64,000 nucleotides of DNA from a plasmid: the sequence record NZ_CP049149.1. One strand, given 5' to 3'. Below, one piece after another: positions 542 to 58,487 of this stretch; within the stretch, counting starts at the first letter, position 1, and every line of letters starts with the position of its first letter. The notes under the pieces are model-generated. The model did no database searches. It saw only the letters and a program-made list of their open reading frames with translations, and had not been told where the DNA came from. Made by a program: the position numbers and the translations under genes.

Positions 542-589
542 TATTTAATTTATAAGATAAGAAAACAATTTGTTTAGTGAGTTTAAGTA

Positions 590-1324
590 ATGCCGGGTAC
601 GAAGTACAAAATCACAGAAGAATGGTTACGTCAGCGTTACATGGTTGACCTGATGAGAAAAGAAGACATTGCAGCCGAAGCTGGTTGCAGCAAGGCAAAT
701 ATTGACCGCCTATTGGCCAAGTGGGGGATTAGACGCGGGAGCGCTCGGATATCCGCTACCCCAGCTTGGAACCAAGGCAAAAATAAAAACAACGACGAAC
801 GCATGAAGCGACTCTCCGAAGCCCGGACTGGCGCTGGCAACCCTATGTATGGGAAGACCGCGTGGAATACTGGTCTGCGTGCTGATACCGATGAGCGAGT
901 GTCCGCCGTATCGAAAAAACTGCTCGGCAAAACAATCAGTGCGGATACGAAGGAAAAGCTTGCGGCTGCCAAACGCGGAAAGTTGGGTGATGAAGCGAAC
1001 AACTATAAAGGTGGCGTCATCTTAAAAACTAACGGCTATCTGATGCGGCTGGTTGGTAACAACGGCGTTTCGCAATACGAATACGTTCATCGGTTGATAG
1101 CGAAAGAACGGCTCGGCCGAGCGCTACGTGACAATGAACATGTACACCACATTAACCGCAATACGGTAGACAACGCTCCTGGGAATCTGGTGGCACTTCC
1201 AGAAGACGCCCACATTCGCCTGCATCATGACATGCGTGATGAGGTATGGAGCTGGGAGCGTCAGCGAGAATGGCTCATCGCCAATGGGTATGAGTTCGTG
1301 AAGATTGATGAGGTGACTGCATGA
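590..1324 (+). CDS. Free-standing HNH homing endonuclease with NUMOD-like repeats, inserted inside dnaE.
   Basis: HHINRNTVDNAPGNLVALPEDAHIRLHH is an HNH motif. GKTAWNTG/TPAWNQG repeats are present. It has its own RBS and an upstream AAACAATTTGTTT promoter element. Its stop overlaps the restart of DnaE. Confidence 0.8.
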   Translation: MPGTKYKITEEWLRQRYMVDLMRKEDIAAEAGCSKANIDRLLAKWGIRRGSARISATPAWNQGKNKNNDERMKRLSEARTGAGNPMYGKTAWNTGLRADTDERVSAVSKKLLGKTISADTKEKLAAAKRGKLGDEANNYKGGVILKTNGYLMRLVGNNGVSQYEYVHRLIAKERLGRALRDNEHVHHINRNTVDNAPGNLVALPEDAHIRLHHDMRDEVWSWERQREWLIANGYEFVKIDEVTA

Positions 1325-2490
1325 AAATTACCGGTGTTGTTGAAGAGAGTAATGGCCTGACGCATGAACGAGCCGAAGAAATCTGGAATATGTTTGAAAA
1401 ATCCGGCGCGTATGCCTTTAACAAATCGCACTCTGTTGCTTATTCTTTAATCAGCTATCAGTCCATGTGGCTAAAAACGCACTACCCGGCTGAGTTTTTT
1501 GCTGCTGCGCTCACCATTCTGGGCGAGGACAAACATCAGGGGCTTGTGAAGGATGCGCTGACCTATGGCATTCGCGTACTGCCACCAGATGTGAACATAT
1601 CGTCTAATCGCATTGAGATCCGCACGCTGGAAGATGGCAGCCAGGTTCTTTACGCGCCCTTCTCTGCCATCAAAGGATGCTCTGAGAATGGTTGCCAGGC
1701 CATCATGCGAGCACGAGAAAAGGTCGGTGGCGCATTCGAGTCACTGGCGCAGTTTGAAGAAGCGGTAGAGAAGCGTGCCTGCAATAGCCGAGTACGTGAA
1801 TCGCTGGACAAAGTTGGGGCGTTTGCATCCATTGATCCGGGCAGCTTGCCAGCCACCGCTCCGGAACGTCTGCGCGACCAGGCGGAGCTGATGGGCAATC
1901 TGGTAATCGACGCAGTGAAAGCCTCACGTCCGTTTGAAATGAACCCCAAGCGCTCTGCTGAGGTCAATTTGCTTATGACGCGCATGGCGGCCGAAATGGG
2001 CTTAGGAGATGAGCTGATCCGCCCAAGCATCGGCATTAAACCGAAAATCATGGTCATTCTGGATAACGCGAACGGCAATGATGGGCGTACCGGTTACTTC
2101 ATGGAGAACGGCTATGACGACTTCAAGGCCAAACTGCTTACTGCAGGCGACTTACGCATGGGCGATCTGTATGTCACCGGCGTATGTAAAAAGGTGAAGG
2201 ACAAAGAGAAAGACTACACCAAAGATGAAATCGGCCAGTTCACCGACTTCATGCGTGAAGAGATAAACCTGGTACGTCCGACTTATGTGCTGACGTGTGG
2301 CAGCCGGGCGACATCACTCTTCAATAACAAGAGCAAACCGTCAGATCTGGTTGGTCGTAAAGAGTATCTGCCGGAGCTGGATGTCACCGTCTTCTACGGG
2401 TTTAACCCGAACATTTTGTACTTCCGTCCAGAGGAAGGAGAAAAGCTGGAAGCGATTCTGGCAGAGGTAGCGGAGACTATTAACAAATGA
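1321..2490 (+). CDS. dnaE: DnaE C-terminal part (GAYAFNKSHSVAY finger region onward) fused to a C-terminal uracil-DNA-glycosylase (family 4)-like domain.
   Basis: ERAEEIWNMFEKSGAYAFNKSHSVAYSLISYQSMWLKTHYPAEFFAA matches DnaE residues about 790-830. The last roughly 170 aa (IMVILDNANGNDGRTGYF...YVTGVCK...VLTCGSRA) follow the UDG-superfamily pattern. Confidence 0.75.
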   Translation: MKITGVVEESNGLTHERAEEIWNMFEKSGAYAFNKSHSVAYSLISYQSMWLKTHYPAEFFAAALTILGEDKHQGLVKDALTYGIRVLPPDVNISSNRIEIRTLEDGSQVLYAPFSAIKGCSENGCQAIMRAREKVGGAFESLAQFEEAVEKRACNSRVRESLDKVGAFASIDPGSLPATAPERLRDQAELMGNLVIDAVKASRPFEMNPKRSAEVNLLMTRMAAEMGLGDELIRPSIGIKPKIMVILDNANGNDGRTGYFMENGYDDFKAKLLTAGDLRMGDLYVTGVCKKVKDKEKDYTKDEIGQFTDFMREEINLVRPTYVLTCGSRATSLFNNKSKPSDLVGRKEYLPELDVTVFYGFNPNILYFRPEEGEKLEAILAEVAETINK

Positions 2491-2930
2491 GCAAAGACAC
2501 CACCATGAACGAGGCACAGAAGATTGCACAAGAGCTGGCGAGCATCCCAGATGAGTTTCGAGATAAAGCAGTGGCGGCCACGCTGAAGTCGCAGTTCTGG
2601 GAAATTATTGATTGCCCGGTCACGTTAGATCTGGCGCTCGCGTTCGCCAGACTGGATGGGGTCGACAACACCAGCCGCTTGCGTAAATGCGCCAGAGCTT
2701 TGGCGCTAAAAACACAAGATCCCAAAGCGTGCGGTTATCTGCTGGCGATATACGAAGCTGACGATCCGCAGACGCAGCTGGAAGCATTCAAAACGTTCCG
2801 CGACCGCCTGGTACTTAAGGTGGCCAAAGAGTTTAAGGAGGTGAACAAGATTGGAGATGTACGGCAGTACAGATTAAAACGCCAAACTAGGGTAACTCTG
2901 TCGAATATTTTCGGTAGGAAAGTAGCATAA
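2487..2930 (+). CDS. hypothetical protein (147 aa)
   Basis: ORF is translationally coupled to dnaE (ATGA overlap) and is followed by a rho-independent terminator. Confidence 0.45.
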   Translation: MSKDTTMNEAQKIAQELASIPDEFRDKAVAATLKSQFWEIIDCPVTLDLALAFARLDGVDNTSRLRKCARALALKTQDPKACGYLLAIYEADDPQTQLEAFKTFRDRLVLKVAKEFKEVNKIGDVRQYRLKRQTRVTLSNIFGRKVA

Positions 2931-2931
2931 A

Positions 2932-2960
2932 GAAAAACCCGCCAAATGGCGGGTTCTTTA
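2932..2960. terminator. bidirectional rho-independent terminator (aaaaacccgcc aaat ggcgggttcttt)
   Basis: GC stem flanked by an A-run and a T-run, between convergent genes. Confidence 0.6.
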
Positions 2961-3539
2961 TGCGTAAACTTCTTCTTCGTGGTCATGCGGGCGAAGGAGT
3001 GAGTGCGCGATTGACTCCACTTCCTGAATGTCGCCAAATGCTCTTAAACGCAGGGCAAGGTTCCACTTGTTCAATGTGTACGCGTTACGCACCAGCTCTT
3101 CCCGCGCTTTTGCGTCTTTGCTGTCGAGACGACCGCAATCATTCAACCATTTAGCGACGTCTGACCAGTCCCAGAGTGGAGACTGACCGCTGATGCGCTG
3201 AATTGGGCAAGGGAAATCACCTTTGCCACGTAAACCGTCTTTAAGCAGAGTGATAGCCTGGCGAGTTAAGCCGGAGAGTTGAGCAATATCACTCAAGCCT
3301 ACCAGTGCTGAATCTACTGATTCAACCACTGCGCCGATACCTGCTGTTTCAATATTATCGATCGCCGATTTAATTGCCTCATCTAAAGATTCGGCTTCTC
3401 GGTCAAATTCTACATACACTGAGCTGCCGTAATAACAGATGAGCGCGTCATCGCAACCGTTGGTGTACAGCGCGTCTGCAAGACCTTCAGTCTCCATCTG
3501 CACACCCGATAATGTCAGTGTAAAATTATAGAGTTCCAT
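2958..3539 (-). CDS. hypothetical protein (193 aa)
   Basis: Long ORF with a downstream hairpin. No recognisable motif. Confidence 0.45.
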   Translation of the reverse strand: MELYNFTLTLSGVQMETEGLADALYTNGCDDALICYYGSSVYVEFDREAESLDEAIKSAIDNIETAGIGAVVESVDSALVGLSDIAQLSGLTRQAITLLKDGLRGKGDFPCPIQRISGQSPLWDWSDVAKWLNDCGRLDSKDAKAREELVRNAYTLNKWNLALRLRAFGDIQEVESIAHSLLRPHDHEEEVYA

Positions 3540-3591: not shown

Positions 3592-3828
3592 TCAGTCCTT
3601 TCTTGATTTCGGGTTACAGCGGTCGACCAGTCTGCGGATCTGCTTTGCGTGCGTCCCCGGGTCTTTAGGCGTGCTGTTTACGCTCATGGCGTGAGTACGT
3701 CCATGTTCGGCAATTCCGCATTTGATGGTACAGAATGGATGCCCTGTCGCTTCTTCAACGATCCAGCCTTTTTCTTCTGCATAGCGGAGTGCTTCACGTA
3801 CTTCTTTATTAGGGTGCTTCTTGCTCAT
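3592..3828 (-). CDS. hypothetical small basic protein (78 aa)
   Basis: ORF with an RBS. No motif recognised. Confidence 0.35.
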   Translation of the reverse strand: MSKKHPNKEVREALRYAEEKGWIVEEATGHPFCTIKCGIAEHGRTHAMSVNSTPKDPGTHAKQIRRLVDRCNPKSRKD

Positions 3829-9293: not shown

Positions 9294-9400
9294 TTTTCAT
9301 TATTATCACCATTAAGAAAACAATTTGTTTTCTAACTCAAAAGACAAAGTGACAGTGCAACGCCACCAGTGGCGACCCGCTGTAAATCAGGACAAAAGCA

Positions 9401-9820
9401 ATGAAGAACGTGAAAAAGCTATATATCGCGGCAAACGCTGCGCTGGACGTAGTTGATAAGGAGATTGCAGAGGGTTATGCGCAGCCAGATTGGGCGCATC
9501 AGTTAAGAGAGGCGATAGCGGAAATGAATACGCCGGAGCCAGCGGAAGATGAAGCTGACTGGCAGCGATTTATTCGAATGTATGCAGAAGAGATTGGCCC
9601 GACTCCTACAGCGGAGCAGGCGATGTTGCTTAAGTACTTTAAAGAAGCTGGCGACGAACTGCCGGTGGACGATACCCCGTACTGGTTTCACGCCGCCTGG
9701 CGAAAAACAGACGTGCTCTTCAGCCGGTCGCTGGGCAGCAAAGACATGGTTGTCTGGCACCTGATGCACATCGATGAGGCCATTGACCGCACGCTGGAGA
9801 AGTTCTTTCAACCAACCTGA
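9401..9820 (+). CDS. hypothetical protein (139 aa)
   Basis: ORF preceded by the AAACAATTTGTTT promoter element. Confidence 0.4.
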   Translation: MKNVKKLYIAANAALDVVDKEIAEGYAQPDWAHQLREAIAEMNTPEPAEDEADWQRFIRMYAEEIGPTPTAEQAMLLKYFKEAGDELPVDDTPYWFHAAWRKTDVLFSRSLGSKDMVVWHLMHIDEAIDRTLEKFFQPT

Positions 9821-21355: not shown

Positions 21356-21486
21356 TAAGCGTGGGGAGAAATCCCCACTTTTTCATTTTGTTGCACGCCT
21401 TATTTTCACCAATAAGATAACAACTTGTTTTGATAGTCATTAAAACAAATTGTTAAAACCATTCGATAACATTCAAAGGGAAACAC

Positions 21487-22629
21487 ATGAGCTATTCCAC
21501 TTTCCGTTTGGGCGCTAACGACGCAACAAAAGAGCCAATGTTCCTCGGGCAGTCCGTGAACGTGGCGCGCTACGATCAGCAGAAATACCGTGACTTCGAA
21601 AAGCTGATTGAAAAACAGCTCTCTTTCTTCTGGCGTCCTGAAGAGGTCGATATCACCACTGACCGCATCGACTTCAACAATAAGCTGCAAGAGCACGAGC
21701 GTCATATTTTTCTGAGCAACCTGCGTTACCAAACGCTTCTGGACTCCGTTCAGGGTCGCAGCCCAAACGCGACTCTGCTGCCGCTGATCTCCATTCCTGA
21801 GCTGGAAACGTGGGTTGAGACCTGGTCGTTCTCTGAAACTATTCACAGCCGTAGCTATACGCACATCATCCGCGGCATGGTGGACGATCCGAGCACCGTC
21901 TTCGATGGCATAGTGGCTGATGAAGAGATTATCAGCCGGGCTATCAGCATCTCTTCCGAGTATGACAAGCTCTATGACATGACCTGCGCGCGCCAGCATC
22001 TCGGCGAGGATGAGTTCGAGCGCCTGTATGCTGCGGATTTCGACGGAAAGCCCTACCCTCTTCACCGTCAGCTGTTCCGTACACTGGTCTCCATCAATTC
22101 GCTTGAGGCGATCCGCTTCTATGTGAGCTTCGCGTGTACGTTCGCTTTTGGCGAGCGAAAACTGCTGGAAGGTAACACCAAAATCATGCGCTTCATTGCG
22201 CGCGATGAGGCACTTCACTGTGAAGGTACTGAGCGTATGCTCCGCTTCATGCGCACCGGCCGTGAGGGGCTGCTGTGGAAGCAAATCGCTGCTGAGGAGG
22301 AGAATTACATCTATCAGACCATGATGGATGTGGCAGGACAGGAAATGCGCTGGGCTGACTATCTGTTCAAAGATGGTTCGATGATTGGTCTGAACGCGGA
22401 AATCCTCAAGACCTATGTAAAATACCGCACCAACCTGGCAATGCGTCGCCTGGGTCTGAACCCACTGTTCCCGGAAATCAAAGACGATCCGCTGGTGTGG
22501 ATGAACAAATGGCTGTTCTCCGACACGCTGCAAATTGCCCCGCAGGAAGCAGAGCAAAGCACCTATCTCGTTGGTCAGATTGACTCGACTGTCGACCGCG
22601 CAGGTCTGAACCAGTTCGCTGACCTTTAA
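21487..22629 (+). CDS. nrdB: ribonucleoside-diphosphate reductase beta subunit
   Basis: Di-iron/tyrosyl radical protein pattern ([21 protein letters not shown]). Ends ...[20 protein letters not shown], the R1-binding tail. Follows nrdA. Confidence 0.85.
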
Positions 22630-32661: not shown

Positions 32662-32715
32662 TTTTCAGGGTTGCTTAAACAATTTGTTAAATCACTTAAC
32701 TAATAGGGAAAACAC

Positions 32716-33141
32716 ATGTTAGGTTTTTTAAAAAAGAAAACGCGTAAAGCGGTTGTTGAAGTGAAAAAGATGGAGAACCGCGACGCTGTAGAGGCGACCG
32801 TCTGGGGTGCCTACATGATCGCATACGCTGACGGCAACTGTGATGCCAAAGAGATCGCCATTCTTGAAAAAACCATCGCGGCGCTGCCAGCATTCTCTCC
32901 GTTCGCAGGCGAAATCGCGCAGATGAGCAGCAACATTCGCGCGCGTTATGAGGCATCTCCGCGCTCTGCCAATGCCCAGGCTCTGCGTGAGCTGGGTGAC
33001 GTAGCCGGTACGCCGGAAGCTGTAGATGTGCTGTGCCTGTGCATCGACATTGCAGATCAGGATGGCATCGGCGAAGAAGAAGAGATTGTGCTTAAGAAAA
33101 TCGCACAGGCGCTCCAGCTCTCTCTGGATGCGTACATCTAA
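32716..33141 (+). CDS. TerB-like domain protein (tellurite-resistance TerB fold), putative
   Basis: Helical pattern YMIAYADGNCDAKEIAILEK...LCLCIDIADQDGIGEEEEIVLKKIA resembles the TerB DG..E motif pair. Confidence 0.35.
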   Translation: MLGFLKKKTRKAVVEVKKMENRDAVEATVWGAYMIAYADGNCDAKEIAILEKTIAALPAFSPFAGEIAQMSSNIRARYEASPRSANAQALRELGDVAGTPEAVDVLCLCIDIADQDGIGEEEEIVLKKIAQALQLSLDAYI

Positions 33142-33423
33142 TGGCAGAGAAATTAAGGCTGGCCGTCGTCGCCATTCTTCTCGTGCTGGTCGTGCTGGTG
33201 GACTTCACTGGCAAACTGATGTCTATCGCGGCAGATGGCGTGTTGGTTGGATTGGCTATCTACTTTGCCCAACCTCTACTTAAAAAATCGAAGTGATCGC
33301 CGAGGGCCACCTGGCCCTCGATTCTTCTGGTTTAACCGTTATGACGCGTTTGCCCCCCTCTTCTGAATTGTCAGAATAAAGCCACCAAGAAAACAAATTA
33401 TTTTAACAATTAAGGAAAAACAC

Positions 33424-34002
33424 ATGTGTGATAAATGCACCGCCGCTAACGCTGAAGTAAAGAAGATCATTAATGAAGTCGGGGCTAAAAAACTCGTAGG
33501 GATGCTTGATTCTATAACTGGTCATGGTGACGCTCATCCGCTGGAACGCATCATGGCCATCGTCCAGGTCATGGACTTATTTGATGAACCAATGAAAATC
33601 CTGATGCTTGCTCGTCACTTTGGCGGGGCGTATGTGGAAGAGCATGAACGTGCCAATAAACTGCAGGCAACTCTGGACATGATGAGCGAACCAAAATGCG
33701 CGCCGGCGCCAGAGCTCTCCGGAGACAATATGGGCATTGAAAGCAAAGAGCGGGAGATCGCCAGCCTTAAGTCTTCTTTAGGCATGTTAATTACCGCCTT
33801 TAAACTAATGGCAACCCATAACGGTTTCAAAATGCCAGAGCTAACCGGCGATGAACATCCCGCTGCTATTCGCCAGCTACTTGGTGCCATGACGGATAAT
33901 ATGGATGAAGCGAAGAGCCCTATCGAAGATATGATGCGAGAACTTGCCCACCGCCACGATCTAAATGACCAGCCGCACAAGATGCAGCAAGTCAGCCACT
34001 GA
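33424..34002 (+). CDS. hypothetical protein, paralog A1 of 42062..42631
   Basis: About 45% identical along its length to the ORF at 42062 (MC..C start, KCAP, REIA.LKSS, FKMPE, DMMREL.HRHDL..QPHK). Confidence 0.55.
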   Translation: MCDKCTAANAEVKKIINEVGAKKLVGMLDSITGHGDAHPLERIMAIVQVMDLFDEPMKILMLARHFGGAYVEEHERANKLQATLDMMSEPKCAPAPELSGDNMGIESKEREIASLKSSLGMLITAFKLMATHNGFKMPELTGDEHPAAIRQLLGAMTDNMDEAKSPIEDMMRELAHRHDLNDQPHKMQQVSH

Positions 34003-34130
34003 ACCTGAAATAGCAAGGGGGCGAGAGCCCCCTTCCCCTCCTCCGTAGCCCTCTGTATAGATCTTTTACGCCTTTTCTTATCTGAGATAATAAAACCAAT
34101 AGGAAAACAAATTGTTTATATGGTGGGATT

Positions 34131-34346
34131 ATGAGTGCTGCGCTTTCTGTCCTTGAGTCTTTTGCTTCGAACACCGGTATCGACCACAGCAAAGAGATGA
34201 ACGTCATCCATGCAATCGTGGCCGAGTGCGAGAAAGGGATCGCGTTCATGCACCAGGTTCACGACTTCACTTATGGCGACGAACGTCACTGGAATAAGTG
34301 TTTAAGATTTGTACTACGTACATTGGAAGTGGAAATTATTTGGTAG
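34131..34346 (+). CDS. small hypothetical protein, paralog B1 (71 aa)
   Basis: The N-terminus MSAALSVLESFASNTGIDHSKEM matches the truncated ORF at 42751. Confidence 0.4.
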   Translation: MSAALSVLESFASNTGIDHSKEMNVIHAIVAECEKGIAFMHQVHDFTYGDERHWNKCLRFVLRTLEVEIIW

Positions 34347-41900: not shown

Positions 41901-42061
41901 ACAACTGATCCCCAGGTCAAAATGTACTGTGCTCGGTTAAAAAACGTTCATGATCTTGCCCTGCCCTGCTCTCCCTTAAACACAAACTTTCTTGTCATTA
42001 CGTATAATGTGATAATAAGACATATAAGAAAACATTTTGTTTAAACTAATAAGTAAATGAC

Positions 42062-42631
42062 ATGTGTCTGAATTGCAAAGATAAATACGCAGAGATGAAT
42101 GCAAAATTTGAAGAAATGGAAGTCGTGGATCTGGTAAAAATGCTTGGTATAGTGCGCGGCACAGAGCAGTCTTCAGTGCCTGAAAGACTGATTACTGTCG
42201 TTAAATTCGCTTCAATTTTTGATGACCCAATGGAAATCATTGGCCTGGCGCACCAACTAGGTGTTCACTATCTGGCAGAGAAAGATCGCGCCGATAAAAT
42301 GCAATCCACACTGAATATGGTCAGCGAGCAGAAATGCGCACCGAGCGCCAGCAAAACTGACGAAACTGTCGCCAGTAAAGACCGCGAAATTGCCGGTCTG
42401 AAATCTTCGATGGCCATACTTATTTCTGCCTTTAAGTTGATGACCACCCAGACAGGTTTCAAAATGCCTGAGATGAACAATGAAGATCCGATGGCTGTGC
42501 GTGAACTGTTGGGCGCGCTGGCCGACCAGCTGGACACCAAGAAAAGCCGCCTGGAAGACATGATGCGCGAGCTAACCCACCGACACGATCTGACTAAACA
42601 GCCGCACAAAGCGCAGCACGCGAATCACTAA
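42062..42631 (+). CDS. hypothetical protein, paralog A2 of 33424..34002
   Basis: See paralog A1. Same promoter element and terminator architecture. Confidence 0.55.
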   Translation: MCLNCKDKYAEMNAKFEEMEVVDLVKMLGIVRGTEQSSVPERLITVVKFASIFDDPMEIIGLAHQLGVHYLAEKDRADKMQSTLNMVSEQKCAPSASKTDETVASKDREIAGLKSSMAILISAFKLMTTQTGFKMPEMNNEDPMAVRELLGALADQLDTKKSRLEDMMRELTHRHDLTKQPHKAQHANH

Positions 42632-42750
42632 TCGCTTGACTCAATGACGGGGGCGAAGCCCCCTTTTCATGCCTGTAAATCCTCCTACTATGCCTTTTGA
42701 GCTCTGAAAAATAACACCAATAAGAAAACAAATTGTTTAATGCTTTTATT

Positions 42751-42840
42751 ATGAATACAGCCCTTTCTATTGTTGATGACATTAGTCTGAACACTGAAAT
42801 CGACTATCGGCAGGAGATGGGTGTTATGGAGCCAGTCTAG
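42751..42840 (+). pseudogene. truncated copy (29 codons) of small paralog B
   Basis: MNTALSIVDDISLNTEIDYRQEMGVMEPV then stop, against the 71-aa 34131 ORF. Confidence 0.4.
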
Positions 42841-43987: not shown

Positions 43988-44277
43988 ATCCAAGCAAGCC
44001 TAGCATCTGCCGTTATGCTTCTAATATTAAGCACTTATATGGGAGGTCGCTTCTTGCATCGATATATCTATACTGTTTGCGACATTTCGGTTGAGTGTTT
44101 GATAAGGTTCCATTGATAATAAAACCCAAATGGTAAAGACCGTTCGTAAAGTAAGGCCAATCTTGTGGCCTTAAACAAATTGTTTTCACCCACTAGTTAT
44201 TATCCCATCATTTAAAATTGCCCTTTTCTGAACGCACGGATACTGTTTGTATATACAGTATTCAGGGTGGAAAAAAG

Positions 44278-44544
44278 ATGGGCGGCAAAGACAGCAACTA
44301 CCAGATCGTTTATCGCGGCGAGACGCTTCAGTGCCTCAAGCCTGGGCAATATGTCTTCTTTCAGCGGCTGAAAGAGTATGGCGGAGGATTCTGGTTGGGA
44401 AAAACCTACGAAGATGGCTTTGAGTTTGTGCTGGAGTGGCCAACCTCTCTGAGTGAGGGGCTGCTGTATCTGATGTCACTTGAGCGCATGGAGGCGAACT
44501 ATCTTGAGTTTGTTAATGACATCGATGATTTTAAGCTGACCTGA
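44278..44544 (+). CDS. hypothetical protein (about 88 aa)
   Basis: Start taken at the ATG after ggtggaaaaaag. Confidence 0.35.
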   Translation: MGGKDSNYQIVYRGETLQCLKPGQYVFFQRLKEYGGGFWLGKTYEDGFEFVLEWPTSLSEGLLYLMSLERMEANYLEFVNDIDDFKLT

Positions 44545-44611
44545 CAACCTCAGGCATCTTTTTAATGCCGTATGTGATTTGAGATAATAACACACACAAG
44601 AAAACAATTTG

Positions 44612-44863
44612 TTTAAGGAGGTTCCCCTGTTCGGAACCACGGGCGAAATCATTGAGAAGCTGGAGAACTATCCGGAAAACAATTTTCTTCTGATGGTCAT
44701 GTGGCACAAGTAAGGCGTAAGCTAGGTTCGACCGGATCTGACAGACGAGCAGTGCGTACAGGTGATGCGTAAAATCAAGGACTTCCATGATGGGAATGTG
44801 GGCGTGAATTGGGATGTTATCGCTAACACGGCCGATATCCTGTTTCTGAAGGAGAAGGCGTGA
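44612..44863 (+). pseudogene. ORF interrupted by in-frame TAA and TAG codons four codons apart
   Basis: The frame reads ...NNFLLMVMWHK stop GVS stop VRPDLTDEQCVQVMRKIKDFHDG...FLKEKA. Follows a promoter element and AAGGAGG but has no ATG. Confidence 0.35.
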
Positions 44864-45388: not shown

Positions 45389-45749
45389 CCTGCAACGCGT
45401 TGACATTGGTGGTCACTAATTGAGGATTTCTATAAGAACTCGTTGATCGCCCTCTTCCCTACTCTCCAACTTCATACACTCCAGGCGCGGCAAGGCTTTT
45501 ACGCACATAACACCCACAAGAAAACAAATAAATAATACATCAATGAAAAGTCAACGCTTTACCCTGATTTGGTCCAAAAAGTTGACGTTTTGCCATGTCA
45601 CTTCTTATATCCGTTAAGCAGCGTACCAGAGACCAACACCCTGCGACGAAAACGCCAAAAACGACTCCTGATACCACCACAAAACAGACATGCTCAGAAT
45701 GGCTCTCGTTGCGTTTAATGAGCATATAAACAAATTGTTTTAGGCATTA

Positions 45750-46340: not shown

Positions 46341-46913
46341 GTTATTCGAGTCAGGAAAGAGCACAGATATAAGAGAGAGGGGATGGCGGGGGATCGCTCC
46401 CTTTCCCGTATTTATTCAAGTCATGATTTTATCCCCCGTAACATCCCTGCGGTCGAACGAGTGAAAGGGCTACCGCGAAAATCAATCGGGAGCGTCCCCG
46501 CAGGGGAAAGGCTGGCTGCCTGAGTGGAAACGGCTGGAGGTTTTTCGGGAAACGGCTGGGTTCCCGTCATGGAAAGGGGGCGTGTCGGTATAGAGACAAA
46601 ATGCCGCGGGGACGGCTGATTCTCTGGCGGTACACCGTTTGGTGCGCGGGTGGCTTTCTTCCCGCTGCGCGCAGCTGCTGATACGTATTCTGCCAGAGCG
46701 TTCGAGGGTCACAAGCTGTTTCAGTAGGTTTTAGGGAAGAGGAAAATACTGCTCACCAGCCCTGCGGTGCGCGTTGAGAAGAATAATGTAAAAAGCGCTC
46801 CCGATACGCTCCCGGATACTCACTACTTTTCCAGTTCTCCCCGATACAAAATGCTTTTTAGCCTATGTCTTATTGCGATAATAACACCAACGAGAAAACA
46901 ACGTGTTTAGACA

Positions 46914-47144
46914 ATGGAGAAAAACATGTACAAGCATTTGAACATCAGCATCACCCTTTGCGGAGAAGAGACATGTACTGACGAACTCCAGATCTCTCTG
47001 GATGACGTTATCCGCTCTGCGGATGTCGCTGGGCGCATTGGTACGTTGATTGGCGAAGGGTATCGCGAGGGCACGTTTGATTTTCATATCGAGGACAACG
47101 CAATGTCCGTCGCGTGGAACTGCACAACGTCAGAGTCCAGATAA
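46914..47144 (+). CDS. hypothetical protein (76 aa)
   Basis: Preceded by a perfect promoter-element copy. Confidence 0.4.
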   Translation: MEKNMYKHLNISITLCGEETCTDELQISLDDVIRSADVAGRIGTLIGEGYREGTFDFHIEDNAMSVAWNCTTSESR

Positions 47145-47369: not shown

Positions 47370-47505
47370 CAACGGCCACCAGCAGGTGGCTTTTGAGTGA
47401 TTGTGGCCTGCGGCCAGCTGAATGCCGGAACGCTTCGCTTGGTGGCCGTTTTCACACTGGTATTATTTACACCAACAAGAAAACAAATTGTTTACGGAGT
47501 GTGCA

Positions 47506-47817
47506 ATGAATACCGAGATGATTTTGAAACTGGATAAGCTCCAGCCTCGCAAAGACAAACCTGCAGTACTCGGTTCGATCACTTTACTGGACATAGTGGC
47601 CAACGGCACAGCCATCCGACTTTTCAAAGAGACCGTTGTCGTCTTCGGCGAAACTTCTCGCAAGCGCATTGTAATGAACGTCCGGCGCTATAGTGCGAAA
47701 GGGTGGGTAGCTAAACAAGTTATCTGGCCTGAGTCAGATCTGGAGTTGGCTTTACTGGAAGTTAACAAGGTCGCCCAGCAGGAAATTCAACGCGCAACAA
47801 CCCTCGCCATAGCATAG
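47506..47817 (+). CDS. hypothetical protein (103 aa)
   Basis: Promoter element and RBS upstream. Terminator downstream. Confidence 0.4.
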   Translation: MNTEMILKLDKLQPRKDKPAVLGSITLLDIVANGTAIRLFKETVVVFGETSRKRIVMNVRRYSAKGWVAKQVIWPESDLELALLEVNKVAQQEIQRATTLAIA

Positions 47818-48344: not shown

Positions 48345-48472
48345 ACCAGCCAATGGCGCGTAACCCGCGCCATTTTTCCCCAACCCGTAAACAAGTTGTT
48401 TTATACCTTTTCTGAGTTGCGATAATAACACCAATAAGAAAACAAGTTATTAACGAAGTGGAGGAAATGTTC

Positions 48473-48847
48473 ATGGGACTTGATATCTATATTGAGACGC
48501 AGCCAAAAAACGATCTGAATAACGAGGCATCCAGAAAGCAAGTTGGCTACTTCCGTAAGTTCAATGCTCTCGTTGGGTGGATGAACCGTAACGTAGGTGA
48601 AGTTGTAAATTGTGAACTTTTAGAAGTTACGATGAATGATATTTGTGCTCTCAAGGCTGATTTGATTCGTCTAAACGAAAGCAATTGTGAAGAGTATCTG
48701 CCTACCCAGGAAGGGTTTTTCTTCGGTAGTCAGGAGTACGATGAAGGGTACTGGAATGACGTGGAAGAGCTGAAAGAGCTTGTGGATGAGCTGATTAAAA
48801 ATCACGACTTCTACAATAACAGACTGACATTTTGCGCCTGGTGGTAA
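48473..48847 (+). CDS. hypothetical protein (about 124 aa)
   Basis: Promoter element and RBS upstream. Confidence 0.4.
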   Translation: MGLDIYIETQPKNDLNNEASRKQVGYFRKFNALVGWMNRNVGEVVNCELLEVTMNDICALKADLIRLNESNCEEYLPTQEGFFFGSQEYDEGYWNDVEELKELVDELIKNHDFYNNRLTFCAWW

Positions 48848-49131: not shown

Positions 49132-49335
49132 GAGAGGAGAGTCACCGATGCTGGTGGCTCTTAATTACCACCTACTTTCCCCAGGCTAAAAACACCCACC
49201 TCTTACCGCCAGGCTACCGAACCACCCACCGACTTCCCGACGGCCACCAGCTGCCGAAACAGAACGCTTGGACGCCTCACACCCACTGCGATAATTAAAC
49301 CAACGAGAAAACAAGTTGTTTAAAGGATTATCACA

Positions 49336-49818
49336 ATGAACTATATCGCCACTGTAAACACTCCCGCGCATGGCACCATCTCTGTCACATACTCCGACAT
49401 TGAAAAGAACATCCTGGGCGCCTGGCGCGAAGAAGAGACCATCCAGCTGTCCGGGAAAGAGAAGCAGCAGATCGCCAAAGACATCATTTGCAACCGTCGA
49501 TTCACGCGGGTATTTGAGAAAGCGTATGTGGTAAATTCTGGGTTTGGAACATTTGTCTTCCCGGTGCGCTCCGGGAGATTCTGTCAGTCCAAGCTGACTG
49601 AGTTTGCCTCGCAGATCGCTATCTGGATTAAGACTCAATCGTCGTTCGATTTTAGCGATGATGAAGCAATAGCGCAGGGTATGCGGATCGCCAACAATGC
49701 AATTAAATACAAAAACATCACGTATGCCGCTGGCGTTGACTCATGGAAACTGTTTTGCGCTAACTTTATGCTGAATGTATTCGCCAGCAATCGGATTCAC
49801 ATACTGGCTGGCAAGTAA
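49336..49818 (+). CDS. hypothetical protein (160 aa)
   Basis: Promoter element upstream. Confidence 0.4.
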   Translation: MNYIATVNTPAHGTISVTYSDIEKNILGAWREEETIQLSGKEKQQIAKDIICNRRFTRVFEKAYVVNSGFGTFVFPVRSGRFCQSKLTEFASQIAIWIKTQSSFDFSDDEAIAQGMRIANNAIKYKNITYAAGVDSWKLFCANFMLNVFASNRIHILAGK

Positions 49819-51437: not shown

Positions 51438-51998
51438 TTAAAACGGGATAATGCGTTCGACCCAATCGAACATAACGACCATCTTCCGACCGCCGCCAAT
51501 GTTGAGCGTGACCTGACAAGCGTCAACGCCTGACGACACACCTTCAATTTCACGGCCGTCCGCCATGTAGACCCTTATAGATTTCTGCGCTTCATGAGCC
51601 TGACGACAAATCTTGAAGAAGTCACGGCGGGATGGCCGATTGTCCACATAGTCCGGGTGTACAGCGATGCGACCGGTGAAGTCGTGCGCTATGCCTTCTG
51701 TCACACCTGATTCAATGGTACTGATTCGCTCAAGTGGCAGCCTTATACGATTTTCTTTGTCGAACGGGGCAGGGCAAAGGTCGACTTTATTGCGAGACGA
51801 CATTAACCCCTGAACGTACATGCAGAACACCTGACCATCATCCAGAGTGACCCTTACAGGAATAAGGGATTTGCGCCAGAACATCAGCGCTTTCTCCACG
51901 AAGGAGTAATCGCGTGGCCAGACCTCTGCGGGTATTCCATATGTGATGTCTGTAACCATAGCCTTCTGCTTATTAATTACTGGTGCCTTATTATACAA
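51438..51998 (-). CDS. hypothetical protein with two tandem ~90-aa repeats loosely resembling Rof/YaeO-type small beta domains
   Basis: Internal repeat KSLIPVRVTLDDGQVF... and KSIRVYMADGREIEGV... The Rof-like similarity is weak. Confidence 0.3.
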   Translation of the reverse strand: MYNKAPVINKQKAMVTDITYGIPAEVWPRDYSFVEKALMFWRKSLIPVRVTLDDGQVFCMYVQGLMSSRNKVDLCPAPFDKENRIRLPLERISTIESGVTEGIAHDFTGRIAVHPDYVDNRPSRRDFFKICRQAHEAQKSIRVYMADGREIEGVSSGVDACQVTLNIGGGRKMVVMFDWVERIIPF

Positions 51999-52966: not shown

Positions 52967-53245
52967 TCACGGTAACCGTTTAAGGATATCTTCCAAATCC
53001 TCTTTGGTCATGCCCGAGTTTTCATAAATCTTCATGACTTTTTCGCGCGCTTTTGCTGACGCTTCAAGCGCCGTTGCGCTCTTGTCGAAATCGGCCATCG
53101 TCATGTTGCTCAACACCAGATTAATGATGTCGGCCTTTGACAGCCTTATGTTGCGATCTCGCAGACGTCCCTGAAAAGACTCCAGTTTGTCGTTCGCCTT
53201 CTCGGTCAGTTGAACCTGACAGTGTATAGCGCGTTTGTCACCCAT
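52967..53245 (-). CDS. hypothetical protein (92 aa), coupled to the helicase
   Basis: Its start overlaps the helicase stop. Confidence 0.4.
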   Translation of the reverse strand: MGDKRAIHCQVQLTEKANDKLESFQGRLRDRNIRLSKADIINLVLSNMTMADFDKSATALEASAKAREKVMKIYENSGMTKEDLEDILKRLP

Positions 53246-54871: not shown

Positions 54872-55570
54872 ATGGATTGTATCAGAAATATGGATGTGAA
54901 AATTACCATTATGCAGGTGGAAGTCGCCAACCTGCGTCCGAATCCCTGGAATACCAACTCTGTTGGGGCGCAAAACTTCGAAAAACTGAAAGGCTCTATC
55001 GAGAAATTGGGCTTTTTTAAGCCAATTCTCGCGCGGGAGCTGGACGGCGGCTTTTTTGAGATCCTCGGCGGCGAACACCGCTGGCGGGCAGCGATGGAAC
55101 AGGGCATTTCAACGGTTCCCGTCATCTCCGTGGGCAAAATTAACGACCTGGTGGCCAAACAGATGTCCCTCGTCGATAACGAGCGCTACGGCGAAGACGA
55201 TCAGGTCGCTTTGCAGCGCTTAATCGAAGAAATCCAGTCTGAAATCGACTACCGGTTGTCCGATATCGCCCCGTATGACGACGAAATGGCGGCAACACTC
55301 GCCAAAGCGTCCGTTATCGATCTTGAAGCGCTGGAAGCGCTCTCCCGTGGCGATGACGAGCCGGTCGATGAGGACAAACGCGAGAAAACCGAGCGAGTCG
55401 GCGCTGAACACCAGACGATGCGCTTCAAGGTGACGTTTGATGCGTCAGATCGCGTCGCCGACACCATCAAAACCATCATCAAAGAGCAGGGAATCAATAC
55501 CGGTAACGAAATGGAGAACGCCGGGGAAGCCCTGGTGTGGCTGGTCGACTACTACAAGGAGCGTATGTAA
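54872..55570 (+). CDS. ParB N-terminal (ParB/Srx-fold nuclease-like) domain protein 1
   Basis: ILGGEHRWRAA resembles the ParB GERRxRA box. Size 232 aa. Confidence 0.55.
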   Translation: MDCIRNMDVKITIMQVEVANLRPNPWNTNSVGAQNFEKLKGSIEKLGFFKPILARELDGGFFEILGGEHRWRAAMEQGISTVPVISVGKINDLVAKQMSLVDNERYGEDDQVALQRLIEEIQSEIDYRLSDIAPYDDEMAATLAKASVIDLEALEALSRGDDEPVDEDKREKTERVGAEHQTMRFKVTFDASDRVADTIKTIIKEQGINTGNEMENAGEALVWLVDYYKERM

Positions 55571-56238
55571 TGACCAAAAACTTTGAAATCGTCTATCGAA
55601 ACCCGGCAGAACTCATCCCGTATGAGATGAACGCCAAAAAACATGACGAACAGCAGATCCGCGATCTGGCGGCCGCCATCAAAAAGCGCGGTTTTGACCA
55701 GCCGATCACGGTCGACAAGCACGACGTCATCATTACTGGCCACGGTCGTCGCGAGGCGGCACTTCTGGCTGGTCTGGAGCGTGTGCCGGTCATCGTTCGC
55801 GACGATCTGAGCGAAGAAGAAGTAAAGGCGAAGCGTCTGGAAGACAACCGCCTGGCCAGTATTGACTACGACGCCATCAAATTGCAGCAGGAACTGGAAT
55901 CCCTGGTGCTGGGCGACGTCGAGGTCTTCGGTTTTGAAGAGCGCGAGCTGAACGTGCTTGTCGGCAGCATGACCGAAGAGATGGAAACCGGCTCTCTGGT
56001 GCTCAATCTGGGCGAAGAGACGGAACGCCAGAAAGAAGAGCACACCGAGATCAGTCGCGAAGTGGCCGCTGAAGAAGTCCGCGTCATCGACGTATTGGGC
56101 TTTAAAACGCTCCCTGCTGGCTCTGCCATTGTGGTTGGGGATTTGCTTGCCCACATGGAAGAAATCACGGGAGAGAGCGGGGTAGACGCTTTCGTGGCGT
56201 ATGCGGAGAAAGTTTCTTCTGGGGAGCTGGCTGCATGA
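55570..56238 (+). CDS. ParB N-terminal domain protein 2
   Basis: ITGHGRREAALLAG box. Start overlaps the previous stop. Confidence 0.55.
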   Translation: MTKNFEIVYRNPAELIPYEMNAKKHDEQQIRDLAAAIKKRGFDQPITVDKHDVIITGHGRREAALLAGLERVPVIVRDDLSEEEVKAKRLEDNRLASIDYDAIKLQQELESLVLGDVEVFGFEERELNVLVGSMTEEMETGSLVLNLGEETERQKEEHTEISREVAAEEVRVIDVLGFKTLPAGSAIVVGDLLAHMEEITGESGVDAFVAYAEKVSSGELAA

Positions 56239-56873
56239 GCAAATACACCATCAACGTATCGTTTCAGACCCGCGTGAACAAAACCACGCGCACGCTGGAG
56301 ATTGCCGAATCGTTCGGTCTTGGCCTGGACGAAAAAGAGTGGACGCTTTACGACAATCTGGAGCTGGAAGTGAAGCAGGGCGATGTGGTGTACATCACCG
56401 GCCAATCCGGTTCCGGTAAATCCGTTGTGCTGCGCGAGCTGCAACGCCAGATGAAGGATGAAGGGCTTTCTGTAGCCTCCATCGATGACTTTACCTTCGA
56501 CAATGAGGTTAACGTCATTGACCAGCTGGGCAAAACCACCAGCGAAGCGCTGGGGCTGCTGTCTATGGCGGGATTGAATGACGCCTATCTCTTTGTGCGT
56601 AAGCCATCCGAGATGTCTGACGGTCAGAAATACCGTCTCAAGATCGCCAAGCTGATCGAGTCAGGCGCCAAAGTCTGGGCAGCCGACGAATTTGGCGCTG
56701 TTCTCGACCGCGTAACCGCCCAGGTTGTGGCGTCGAACCTCCAGCGTGCCGCCCGAAAGGTTGGCGCGACGGTAATGGTGGCGACGACCCACGAAGACCT
56801 GAAGAACGCGCTGCGCCCGGATATGCAGATCACCAAGCACTACAAAGAACGCGTGAAGGTGGAATATGCCTGA
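56235..56873 (+). CDS. minimal ABC-type ATPase (212 aa)
   Basis: Walker A GQSGSGKS, signature-like SDGQKYRLKIA, Walker B VWAADEFGAVLD, H-loop ATTHED. Confidence 0.55.
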   Translation: MSKYTINVSFQTRVNKTTRTLEIAESFGLGLDEKEWTLYDNLELEVKQGDVVYITGQSGSGKSVVLRELQRQMKDEGLSVASIDDFTFDNEVNVIDQLGKTTSEALGLLSMAGLNDAYLFVRKPSEMSDGQKYRLKIAKLIESGAKVWAADEFGAVLDRVTAQVVASNLQRAARKVGATVMVATTHEDLKNALRPDMQITKHYKERVKVEYA

Positions 56874-57120
56874 TTTGAAGATCGTAGAGCTGAAGCCATC
56901 GAAAGAGGCTGACAACAACAACGTTGAAGTCATCCGCCTGCTGGAAGAAGCACTCCAGTACGCCAGAGAAGGCAAAAGCCAGAGCCTGGCACTGCTGATG
57001 ATCAACAACGACGGCAGTGTGCTGGATTGCTGGCATAACGGTGGGCGTCCATACGTCATGGTTGGGGCGATGGAATCGCTTCGCCTGGACTTCATCAATG
57101 CCAATATCGAGCGTAGGTGA
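56866..57120 (+). CDS. hypothetical protein (84 aa)
   Basis: Coupled ORF. Confidence 0.35.
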   Translation: MPDLKIVELKPSKEADNNNVEVIRLLEEALQYAREGKSQSLALLMINNDGSVLDCWHNGGRPYVMVGAMESLRLDFINANIERR

Positions 57121-58016
57121 TCGACATGACAGGCATCATCATCAAACGCTACCGCCCGGAAGAGTTCCCGCGTCATCTGGACTTTCTGGAGCGTATGACC
57201 GTAACCAAAGGCACGGTTGAAGACTGGCACGCGCTGAAGTCGCTGCACTACAAGACGGATGGTAAGCCGTTCGCGCCAACGTATTACCGCTGCGAACTGG
57301 ACGACCGGCTGGTGGGCGTCGTGGTTATGGCTTACCCGAAACTGCTGCTGGCGCCTCGCCATCGCATGTTTCCTAAGCTGAAGCCAACCACCAATACCAC
57401 CGTGGCCAACCAGTATTGGGGCCGGTACGTGAACAACAACTTTGCGGTGATCAGCCGTTCCGTTGTTGACACTCAGTACCGCGGTGTCGGCGTCTCCTAT
57501 CGAATGATTAATCTGGTTAGCAGGATGCACGACCGGCCAATCATCGAGATCCAGTCGTCGATGAGCAAATACAACCCGTTCGCCATGAAAGCAGGGTTCC
57601 AGTTCATCCGTCCGGAGCGTCCGAAGAGCTATGAGAGTGCGTTGCGCGTCTTCCAGCGTCATTTCCGTTCTGACCCTGGCGACAACGAAGCGATCGTCAA
57701 AGAGCTGTTCGCCATGAGTGAGTCTCGCCGTCGTCGTGCGCTGCGCGATCTGGTCGCTGACTACCACAAGAACAGTTCCCTGGCCAAAGCCGGGCGTAAT
57801 CGTGGCACGACGATTCAGGACATTGCCGACAGCCTGGTGGACGAGGCCAGCATCGTGAAGCTGCTCAAGGACATTCACAACCTGAGCTTCACGTCTCCGC
57901 TGTATGGCGTGTACCGAAACCCGGACTTTGGTCGTCAGCTGCCGGACACGCTGCCACTGCTGGCATTCGACAAACAGCCTTTGAATAAACCTCTTGAAAT
58001 TGCATTACCGGCATAA
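57117..58016 (+). CDS. hypothetical protein with a GNAT-like motif A (299 aa)
   Basis: YRGVGVSYRMINLV fits the GNAT R-x-x-G-x-G/A pattern. Otherwise unrecognised. Confidence 0.35.
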   Translation: MIDMTGIIIKRYRPEEFPRHLDFLERMTVTKGTVEDWHALKSLHYKTDGKPFAPTYYRCELDDRLVGVVVMAYPKLLLAPRHRMFPKLKPTTNTTVANQYWGRYVNNNFAVISRSVVDTQYRGVGVSYRMINLVSRMHDRPIIEIQSSMSKYNPFAMKAGFQFIRPERPKSYESALRVFQRHFRSDPGDNEAIVKELFAMSESRRRRALRDLVADYHKNSSLAKAGRNRGTTIQDIADSLVDEASIVKLLKDIHNLSFTSPLYGVYRNPDFGRQLPDTLPLLAFDKQPLNKPLEIALPA

Positions 58017-58025
58017 GGATTTGCC

Positions 58026-58292
58026 ATGACGTTGACCGACAAACAAAAAGACATCATCAAAACCATCAATTTAGGCCATGAGCGTGGGCATCTGCTCGAT
58101 CTGGACGAGCTACTGGAAGTGCTGCCGTACAAAACGACCAAACAGAGTATGCAGTTCTCGATCCGCGCACTGGTGAAGAAGGGGCTGGTGGAGAAAGGAA
58201 TGTGCCGCCAGCGCGGTGATTCCGGCTACCACCGTCGCACGCTGGGACTGACCACGTTAGGTCGTGCCAGAGCCAAATTACTGGTGATGTAA
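58026..58292 (+). CDS. hypothetical small protein, possibly winged-helix DNA-binding (88 aa)
   Basis: ORF. Weak HTH-like pattern. Confidence 0.3.
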   Translation: MTLTDKQKDIIKTINLGHERGHLLDLDELLEVLPYKTTKQSMQFSIRALVKKGLVEKGMCRQRGDSGYHRRTLGLTTLGRARAKLLVM

Positions 58293-58317
58293 GTCGGTCT
58301 GGGAGCCAGTTTGAGAG

Positions 58318-58372
58318 CCTGCTTCCGTATATATAAATACTAAGTGACTTATTAAATATATACGGAAGCAGG
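58318..58372. repeat. long perfect inverted-repeat hairpin, copy 2 (17-bp stems CCTGCTTCCGTATATAT / ATATATACGGAAGCAGG)
   Basis: Read directly. The loop contains a nested AAGT/ACTT palindrome. Confidence 0.8.
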
Positions 58373-58487
58373 TTCTGAATACTCCCCAGCCCGGTTTTAA
58401 ACACCCAGAAAACAAATTGGTTAGGCACTGAATTAAACAAGTTGTTTAGGAGCGCAAGGATGCGCTCTGAGTGTTTTAGAGGGATCT

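Follow-up and report, generated by a model that had tools for sequence, protein, structure and literature searches.

A dispersed palindrome downstream of extended -10 promoters in an SSU5-like phage-plasmid, a putative repressor operator

A 64,000-nt stretch of plasmid DNA from sequence record NZ_CP049149.1 (the whole stretch is called the window here) carries the same 13-bp palindrome, AAACAANTTGTTT, in front of genes as different as those for an HNH endonuclease, NrdB and TerS. What does this palindrome do at so many places, and what reads it? Megablast groups the window with the SSU5-like phage-plasmids (91-97% identity to Klebsiella elements and ~78% to Salmonella phage SSU5), and judged by its sequence it is an SSU5/pHCM2/pMT1-like phage-plasmid; pMT1 and pHCM2 are known elements of this type, the affiliation being drawn in part from locus L011. 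A preliminary description of the window had proposed that the palindromes form a family of promoter/operator elements under a single regulator. The analysis presented here leads us, with a modest leaning, to a more definite reading: AAACAANTTGTTT would be a dispersed repressor operator whose main copies are centred near +14 of promoters of the extended -10 type and whose auxiliary copies are found near -38 and +39. Literature searches returned no earlier description of the motif or of such a regulon, and none of the lysis/lysogeny control of these phage-plasmids.

The palindrome and its promoter module

The palindrome is real, conserved and functional-looking. Exact matches to AAACAANTTGTTT number 11 in the window, against 0.00 expected from 100 dinucleotide-preserving shuffles, and with up to two mismatches there are 24 against 4.2 expected, the largest count in any shuffle being 10. 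Altogether there are about 20 copies (Table 1), and all those that can be oriented point toward genes of the + strand. The 20 positions first listed for the family all correspond to real copies; some of the earlier coordinates mark the beginning of the extended motif, so that they lie up to ~25 nt before the 13-mer, and the one given as 45505 is a degenerate half-site at 45522-45534. The impression that the copies are densest between 42 and 50 kb was also accurate, 11 of the 20 being found there. Four extra matches with two mismatches (12539, 40731, 47713 and 54732) fall within coding regions or at their ends and seem fortuitous.

About half of the copies share an arrangement which we call class A and which consists, in this order, of TGnGATAAT (or TGGTATTAT), 13-14 nt with the consensus AACACCAAYRAGA, the palindrome, a Shine–Dalgarno sequence and an ATG. 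The extended motif of the preliminary description is thus genuine: seven copies on the + strand of the window have TGnGATAAT or TGGTATTAT upstream, with TG at -15/-14 and with A2 and T6 in the hexamer, and the palindrome follows 13-14 nt after each. By sequence, the class A hexamer and the TG ahead of it make up a classical sigma-70 promoter of the extended -10 type, without a -35 element. A standard -35/-10 scan misses the class A promoters because this type needs no -35 hexamer. The association with promoters that had been noted earlier is supported, while two details of it have to be revised. The promoters do not form a phage-specific class, being of the ordinary sigma-70 extended -10 kind, and the palindrome would not be embedded in the promoter, as its likely place is downstream (about +8..+20). 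Promoters for sigma-28, sigma-54 or a single-subunit RNA polymerase were considered and rejected, no TAAAGTTT being present at the right distance; the annotations of SSU5 and of the SSU5-like prophage Cyrano list no RNA polymerase gene.

The same module is found in 88 related loci (1.58 Mb), gathered around the gene of an FljA-like protein from genomes, IMG/VR and assemblies. They hold 653 sites in 374 distinct contexts with the palindrome unchanged, and elements from Nissabacter, Kluyvera, Buttiauxella, Yersinia pestis (pMT1) and E. coli are among its carriers. In 181 of the 374 contexts the palindrome has a -10 hexamer ahead of it (GATAAT in 121, TATTAT in 35), at a distance from the hexamer's end of 13-14 nt or, rarely, 11-12 nt, and 134 of these 181 also have the TG element. 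Conversely, 115 of the 142 distinct TGnGATAAT/TATTAT contexts have a palindrome with at most one mismatch behind them. In the class A contexts of the relatives, a Shine–Dalgarno sequence and start codon follow 8-20 nt past the palindrome end, most often at 12 nt, whereas 129 of the other 193 contexts lack them within 60 nt. About half of all contexts are not leaders, because no open reading frame (ORF) starts within this distance. When orthologous promoters are aligned, conservation extends from the -10 region through the palindrome, and the coding sequence behind it may drop to 36-55% identity.

SSU5 itself has 20 copies of the same 13-mer (at most one mismatch), located ahead of parA-like, dnaB, cobT-like, nrdB and terS genes among others, and zero copies inside its 30-kb structural operon. 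The regulon first suggested comprised the HNH gene, the paralogous cassettes beside the restriction-modification (R-M) island and the accessory region. All of these indeed have the site; the scope was nevertheless too narrow, as nrdB and the terS late operon have it too and, in SSU5, the parA-like, dnaB and cobT-like genes. On the other hand, the FljA-like gene and a ParB-like operon have class-A-like promoters without a palindrome, and the AAACAANTTGTTT regulon does not cover every promoter of the element.

Not all copies belong to a class A module. Palindrome-only copies follow GC-rich hairpins where genes end (44173), precede the -10 hexamer of a class A module (48389) or stand 25 bp past a first copy (21443 and 58435). 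Where neighbouring palindromes are less than 150 bp apart, 98 pairs have a spacing of 50/51 bp, 55 pairs one of 25 bp and 2 pairs one of 105 bp; no other distance occurs, and the sequence of the spacer varies with the gene context. Relative to the proximal copy, an auxiliary one is placed exactly 51 bp upstream or 25 bp downstream. It had been stated that the palindromes lie 15-40 bp upstream of start codons, which is correct for 12 sites but not for those at 44173, 45728 and 48389 (palindrome-only, after hairpins or upstream of a -10), at 21418 and 58410 (first members of 25-bp pairs), at 42726 (truncated 29-codon ORF) or at 44602 (CTG instead of ATG).

One relative departs from this picture. 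The Moellerella wisconsensis plasmid NZ_CP093251.1 (L147/L148) is a distant SSU5-like element whose backbone is 60-82% identical (terL 82%, nrdAB 66-68%), and no AAACAANTTGTTT was found in promoter context across the 86 kb read. Its class-A-like promoters have retained the -10 hexamer and AAGA but, of the palindrome, no more than the A-rich left half AAACAA; the right half is gone.

Duplex operator or leader RNA

Is the palindrome read as DNA or as RNA? The substitutions tolerated in the related loci mirror each other between the half-sites (A1>T/T13>A, C4>T/G10>A, A6>T/T8>A and A3>C/T11>G), and positions A2, A5, T9 and T12 are invariant. Equivalent constraints on the two half-sites, an overlap with the core promoter and start region, and auxiliary sites in a fixed register are features of dimeric operators. 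Together with the spacing of neighbours by 25 or 51 bp, the symmetric variants agree with the earlier suggestion of a two-fold symmetric factor acting on the duplex. As a folded RNA the palindrome is unconvincing: the free energy of the hairpin is 0 to -0.7 kcal/mol, four leaders tested were no more folded than their shuffles (z -0.7 to +0.9), and variants with several mismatches do not restore pairing through compensatory changes. The G10>A exchange and the wobble-preserving C4>T were each seen 13 times. With this marginal fold, no covariation and 0 matches in an Rfam scan of the window, we rejected the identity of the palindrome as an RNA hairpin or terminator.

In the mechanism that we favour, AAACAANTTGTTT would be the operator of a genome-wide repression regulon, its duplex being read by a two-fold symmetric factor encoded by the element. 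Assuming that transcription starts about 7 nt past the -10 hexamer, the proximal site should cover about +8..+20 and the auxiliary sites should be centred near -38 and +39. An occupied proximal site would block RNA polymerase, the auxiliary sites might be bound cooperatively, and some 20-25 early, accessory, replication and late (terS) transcription units would thereby be kept shut during plasmid life. An activator, which the preliminary description had also envisaged, is unlikely to use a site centred near +14.

Lysogen transcription fits this picture. RNA-seq data at gene level are available for every gene of Cyrano in E. coli LF82 (Misson et al., PMC9928086, S1 Table), and 16 palindromes could be mapped in the 80 kb of Cyrano read. 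In the lysogen, 11 of the 13 genes directly behind palindromes are expressed at lytic-gene background. The median in vitro log2(FPKM+5) (FPKM, fragments per kilobase per million mapped reads) is 3.9 for these 13 genes and 3.86 for the other + strand genes, compared to 7.6 for the maintenance genes of the - strand. Silence behind good -10 elements is what repression would produce, and it accords with the proposed control of plasmid state versus lytic growth; the data are consistent with repression but not diagnostic of it because all lytic genes are silent.

Several observations weigh against a plain DNA operator. In the Cyrano lysogen the parA-like operon is expressed (7.1; log2 about 7-9) despite a perfect copy upstream, CYRAN_111 is moderately expressed (5.9), and the + strand genes are mostly silent, with or without a palindrome ahead of them. 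The placement at +8..+20 presupposes that GATAAT is the -10 hexamer. Furthermore, conservation includes the 13 nt that separate the palindrome from the -10 (AACACCAAYRAGA), and the Shine–Dalgarno sequence comes directly after the palindrome, two features that a DNA operator leaves unexplained and that an RNA-level operator would explain. Base-specific recognition of a stem of 5 bp and a loop of 3 nt would also lead to the observed pattern of variable ends and centre with fixed inner pairs. Finally, the sole conserved and lysogen-expressed gene annotated as a regulator encodes a protein with a predicted RNA-binding, Hfq-like fold.

This gene (51438..51959) encodes a member of the FljA family, with a full-length match to PF03614 (E 4.5e-93), and is conserved in all SSU5-like elements examined. 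An AlphaFold model of the protein (pLDDT, predicted local distance difference test, 83.5) consists of two helix-plus-five-strand repeats, and its top matches in the PDB are all Hfq, with a root-mean-square deviation of ~1.2 Å over 57 residues and a target-normalised TM (template modelling) score of ~0.8. The protein also has a weak match to an Hfq hidden Markov model of NCBIfam. The FljA family (PF03614, 'repressor of phase-1 flagellin') is thus predicted from the model to have a tandem Hfq/Sm-like fold, a link for which our literature searches returned no precedent. Salmonella FljA acts on an operator in the fliC mRNA leader beside the ribosome-binding site, as set out in PMC4122451 and PMC2652032, which cite Bonifield & Hughes 2003 and Yamamoto & Kutsukake 2006.

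By analogy, the FljA-family protein of the element could bind the transcribed palindrome together with the A-rich leader AAGAAAACAA in the 5′ untranslated region, where it would cover the Shine–Dalgarno sequence and destabilize the mRNA as Salmonella FljA does on fliC mRNA. We consider such an RNA-level operator doubtful, though several observations speak for it. A protein of the same Pfam family with a predicted tandem Hfq-like fold is encoded in the same replicon, and the Cyrano lysogen contains its mRNA (log2 about 7). Class A palindromes lie at the right place, 8-20 nt ahead of the start codon and next to the Shine–Dalgarno sequence, behind a conserved transcribed stretch of 13 nt. The element is carried by Klebsiella, which has no flagella, and by Y. 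pestis, which is non-motile, so that the target of the FljA-like protein probably resides inside the element. In the Moellerella plasmid, where the palindrome is absent, the FljA-like protein has diverged to 24% identity.

Against an RNA-level operator stands the distribution of the sites: about half of the contexts, including the 129 without a ribosome-binding site in reach, are outside leaders, and neighbouring copies keep their 51- or 25-bp register. The marginal hairpin, the lack of compensatory changes and the equal frequency of G10>A and C4>T argue in the same direction. In addition, the FljA-like gene is the fastest-diverging of its neighbourhood (68-70% identity against 93-100% for the neighbours), but the consensus of the palindrome is constant across the allele groups and no co-variation between the two was found. 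The parallel with Salmonella also has its limits: FljA proper, which binds RNA and has one chromosomal target, shares only 37-40% identity with its relatives in these elements, and there is no significant similarity between the leaders of fliC and of class A. By eye the two leaders share the blocks CCAATAA and CAAGTTGT; this similarity was discarded since a profile built from the 181 class A leaders failed to retrieve the fliC leader, taken from metagenome contigs, from 473 kb of control DNA, and the blocks are accordingly not statistically supported.

A bolder version would make this protein, of tandem Hfq/Sm fold rather than of the classical helix-turn-helix (HTH) type, the master regulator of lysogeny. 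It would read the dyad and the A-rich leader at ~20 promoters, either as a leader hairpin, with translation block and mRNA decay, or as duplex DNA, which would be unusual for the fold, and Salmonella FljA would be a domesticated phage immunity factor. We rate this as unlikely; if true, an Hfq-fold FljA homologue as the regulator would represent a new type of phage immunity and explain the origin of FljA.

Candidate binders and the remaining explanations

Returning to the duplex operator that we favour, which protein might bind it? The FljA-family protein heads the list with somewhat less than an even chance, DNA- and RNA-level action taken together. Another, unannotated protein of the element is a tentative second candidate, a host factor is improbable, and the 88-aa winged-helix (wHTH) protein encoded at 58026..58292, which had been put forward as the regulator in the preliminary description, has a slim chance. 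Its predicted fold is indeed that of a DNA-binding protein: the model (pLDDT 81) reaches a target-normalised TM score of 0.76 to MarR/PadR-type folds, the protein occurs in these elements only, and the sequence KQSxQFSxR of its recognition helix does not vary. It is, however, weakly expressed in the Cyrano lysogen (log2 2.9-5.7), and the Moellerella relative, which lacks the palindrome, has the same recognition helix.

Other candidates were rejected. The 193-aa 'excisionase and transcriptional regulator' (2958..3539, - strand) belongs to a module that occurs elsewhere without a palindrome nearby. CYRAN_45, the 'putative repressor' of Misson et al., is part of an integrase insertion specific to Cyrano, and SSU5 does not have it. 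A 92-aa gene (52967..53245) is highly expressed in the lysogen but does not track the site, because it is equally divergent in Nissabacter, which has the palindrome, and in Moellerella, which does not.

That the palindrome is bound by a transcription factor or nucleoid protein of the Enterobacteriaceae and Yersiniaceae, the element's promoters being wired into a host circuit, seems to us quite improbable as an explanation of the whole. It would account for a site that is invariant across many genera while the element's own candidate regulators diverge, and for its absence from the single relative examined in a Morganellaceae host. No E. coli or Salmonella regulator is known to us to have this consensus, and none of those considered (Fis, IHF, KdgR, PurR/Cra, PhoP, RcsB and others) is known to fit. 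Moreover, no copy in promoter context was present in 473 kb of chromosomal and other control DNA.

Very improbable, too, is the idea that the palindromes are centromere-like or loading sites for the proteins of the ParB_N - ParB_N - ABC-ATPase - wHTH operon (54872..58292), with secondary effects on promoters, comparable to the SopB sites of N15, the KorB O_B sites of IncP plasmids or the AspA system of pNOB8. Two proteins with a ParB N-terminal domain and an ABC-type ATPase are encoded beside the 88-aa wHTH protein, whose Foldseek matches include the pNOB8 centromere-binding protein at rank 48, and a 13-bp dyad at ~20 dispersed places recalls KorB O_B. The palindromes nevertheless keep a strict register with both the -10 hexamer and the start codon, which points to gene expression. 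In the Cyrano lysogen, when partition would be needed, the operon is silent (log2 2.3-3.7), the ParB profile match is limited to the N-terminal domain, and the wHTH recognition helix is, as mentioned, no different in the palindrome-free Moellerella plasmid.

It is equally hard to believe that nothing binds and that the palindromes merely reflect shared ancestry of a mobile promoter/leader cassette, spread with accessory genes by recombination like the PeSL of T4. In favour of this view, the entire 33-90 bp module is conserved, beyond the dyad, breakpoints of homology between relatives show a modest excess close to the elements (15 of 86 are within 40 nt, where 8.4 are expected; P ~0.02), and the R-M island is flanked by two diverged copies of a two-gene, two-promoter cassette. 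Against it, some palindromes stand alone with no other part of the module, conservation is highest in the dyad and its constraints are symmetric, and the Moellerella leaders keep the cassette without the right half, which makes the dyad a separable feature under selection.

The type I R-M island itself (34408-41868, - strand) is bracketed by diverged units at 33391-34346 and 42030-42840. Each unit has the order class A promoter, ~190-aa gene, class A promoter, 71-aa gene, and the ~190-aa proteins are 48% identical. To judge from this layout and from the breakpoints, the promoter–operator module also behaves as a cassette boundary. The PeSL of T4-type phages are reportedly cassettes of an early promoter and a stable terminator stem-loop that flank small variable ORFs (Arbiol et al. 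2010). As in T4, small variable ORFs of a plastic region are bordered here by conserved early-promoter modules, which are often located at mosaic junctions; unlike in T4, the dyad forms no stable hairpin and the geometry is operator-like.

Known systems and other features of the window

Dispersed operators have clear precedents, by analogy, in the C1 operators of P1 and the IncP KorA/KorB regulon. C1 is said to act as a monomer at well over a dozen dispersed operators with the asymmetric 17-bp sequence ATTGCTCTAATAAATTT, in work going back to Lobocka et al. 2004 and before. The resemblance lies in a single regulator of a prophage-plasmid, here a proposed one, with scattered operators at many units including replication, accessory and late functions. 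It ends with the site, since AAACAANTTGTTT is a symmetric, perfect 13-bp dyad of unrelated sequence in a fixed place downstream of the -10, and ATTGCTCTAATAAATTT does not describe it. In IncP plasmids (RK2), KorA and KorB bind palindromic O_A and O_B sites at ~7-12 backbone promoters, some of them near -39/-40, in a cooperative manner, and O_B has 13 bp with a free central base. The window shares with them short perfect palindromes repeated at promoters and, as proposed here, coordinated repression. The sequences, however, are unrelated, and KorB is a full ParB-family protein with an HTH, whereas the ParB_N proteins of the element match ParB profiles in the N-terminal domain only and their operon is silent in the lysogen.

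The architecture of a single promoter resembles lac O1/O3 and lambda OR. The lac O1 operator is centred at +11 and adjacent lambda operators are 23-24 bp apart; in our case, too, the main operator would lie just past the start, with auxiliary sites in helical register and a 25-bp spacing near that of lambda. The lac and lambda systems are confined to a single locus, whereas the architecture described here is copied at some 20 promoters.

With one 13-bp site at ~20 promoters, a regulon is predicted and a probe for pulling down its regulator becomes available. The arrangement also suggests how acquired accessory genes might come under prophage control, namely by insertion behind a standard promoter–operator cassette. 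These phage-plasmids are common; the gene of the 88-aa protein is present on 796 plasmids of PLSDB, including records of Y. pestis and Salmonella enterica. Some of them carry resistance genes (PMC9600943).

The gene order of the window is shared with SSU5 (end of the DNA polymerase gene, recombination, repA/oriV, nrdAB, thyA, accessory region, terS, terL and portal). Most genes are on the + strand. Those on the - strand are repA, the type I R-M island, a HicAB-like pair and a short block with a 216-aa gene, the FljA-like gene, the 92-aa gene and a helicase.

Table 1. Palindrome copies, candidate binders and sites of a second dyad in the window
Position	Strand	Palindrome start and match	Context
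563..575	+	563, perfect	AAACAATTTGTTT; ATG of HNH/NUMOD3 endonuclease gene 590..1324 starts 14 nt on
9318..9330	+	9318, perfect	11 nt past -10-like hexamer TATTAT, after terminator-like hairpin; DUF7238 gene 9401..9820 downstream
21418..21455	+	21418 and 21443, one mismatch each	Pair TAACAACTTGTTT and AAACAAATTGTTA, 25 bp apart; upstream of nrdB 21487..22629
32677..32689	+	32677, one mismatch	Without GATAAT module; 26 nt ahead of TerB-like gene 32716..33141
33391..33403	+	33391, one mismatch	Class A; ahead of 192-aa gene 33424..34002 (left paralogue beside R-M island)
34083..34117	+	34105, perfect	Full class A, TGAGATAAT and 13 nt; ahead of 71-aa gene 34131..34346
42008..42042	+	42030, one mismatch	Full class A, TGTGATAAT, 13 nt and AAACATTTTGTTT; ahead of 189-aa gene 42062..42631 (right paralogue)
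42726..42738	+	42726, perfect	Class A; ahead of truncated 29-codon remnant 42751..42840 of 71-aa gene
44173..44185	+	44173, perfect	Palindrome-only (B-type); directly 3′ of hairpin AAGGCCAATCTTGTGGCCTT
44580..44614	+	44602, perfect	Full class A, TGAGATAAT and 13 nt, then Shine–Dalgarno; ORF has CTG, SSU5 has ATG
45522..45534	+	degenerate	AAACAAATAAATA; leader and left half retained, right half lost, like leaders of the Moellerella relative
45728..45740	+	45728, perfect	Palindrome-only; decayed partner 25 bp downstream
46874..46908	+	46896, one mismatch	Full class A, TGCGATAAT, 13 nt and AAACAACGTGTTT; ahead of small gene 46926..47144
47458..47493	+	47481, perfect	Full class A, TGGTATTAT and 14 nt; ahead of gene 47506..47817
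48389..48452	+	48389, perfect; 48440, two mismatches	B-A module: auxiliary palindrome 48389-48401, TGCGATAAT 48418-48426, proximal AAACAAGTTATTA 48440-48452; 51 bp centre to centre; ahead of gene 48473..48847
49287..49321	+	49309, perfect	Full class A, TGCGATAAT and 13 nt; ahead of gene 49336..49818
58410..58447	+	58410, one mismatch; 58435, perfect	Pair 25 bp apart ahead of late operon (terS 58488..59129); leader AACACCCAGA retained, no good -10 hexamer
51438..51959	-		FljA-family gene (PF03614); candidate trans-acting factor; own promoter without palindrome
58026..58292	+		88-aa winged-helix (MarR/PadR-like) protein; second candidate binder
14254-14265			Second dyad, AAGTA-NN-TACTT(A)
23735-23746			Second dyad
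31829-31840			Second dyad
47886-47897			Second dyad
54855-54866			Second dyad
61900-61911			Second dyad

A second promoter-proximal dyad, AAGTA-NN-TACTT(A), is located directly past -10-like hexamers, with 8 matches (at most one mismatch) where 0.87 would be expected. The genes behind it include the sbcD-like gene, thyA and the ParB-like operon, and it is conserved in SSU5 and the 88 loci; in Moellerella its arms persist with a spacer of 6 nt. This dyad probably marks a second regulon.

Some further observations concern sequences next to the palindromes. Between the double palindrome and the start of terS (58450-58479), a hairpin GAGCGCA-AGGA-TGCGCTC (58450-58467) is followed by TGAGTGTTTT and kept in relatives. 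It may be a leader terminator, in which case the late operon would be under antitermination control. The ORF behind the class A module at 44602 (44615-44712) starts with CTG and ends after 30 codons, and the region 44760-45390 has an apparent frameshift relative to the SSU5 genes; for these reasons both are probably decaying genes. Between the palindromes at 45728 and 46896, the segment 45540-46700 is A/C-rich and of low coding quality, with only short ORFs on both strands and ~71-73% conservation in relatives. A perfect LexA-box-like sequence TACTGTTTGTATATACAGTA (CTGT-N8-ACAG) at 44241-44260 lies 18 nt ahead of an 88-codon ORF (44278..44544), which could be SOS-inducible, to judge from this box, and perhaps has a role in induction; the orthologous region of SSU5 is without it.

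Other observations concern the genes on the - strand. The FljA-like gene adjoins a variable segment (51956-52965), like an immunity cassette. The 193-aa gene at 2958-3539 forms a two-gene module with an upstream gene of 78 aa (3592-3828, - strand); its label 'excisionase and transcriptional regulator' comes from PHROGs. The same module is found in integrative and conjugative elements, Providencia chromosomes and Pantoea plasmids, and the syntenic pair of Cyrano (CYRAN_50/51) is annotated as HicB antitoxin/HicA toxin and strongly expressed in the lysogen. Upstream of repA (ATG at 12580), the region ~12600-12830 on the - strand has the make-up of a plasmid origin, with a DnaA box TTATCCACA (12807-12815), a cluster of GATC sites and iterons TATGCTGTCAGCGGTAAGCGA present as three full direct repeats and two partial copies.

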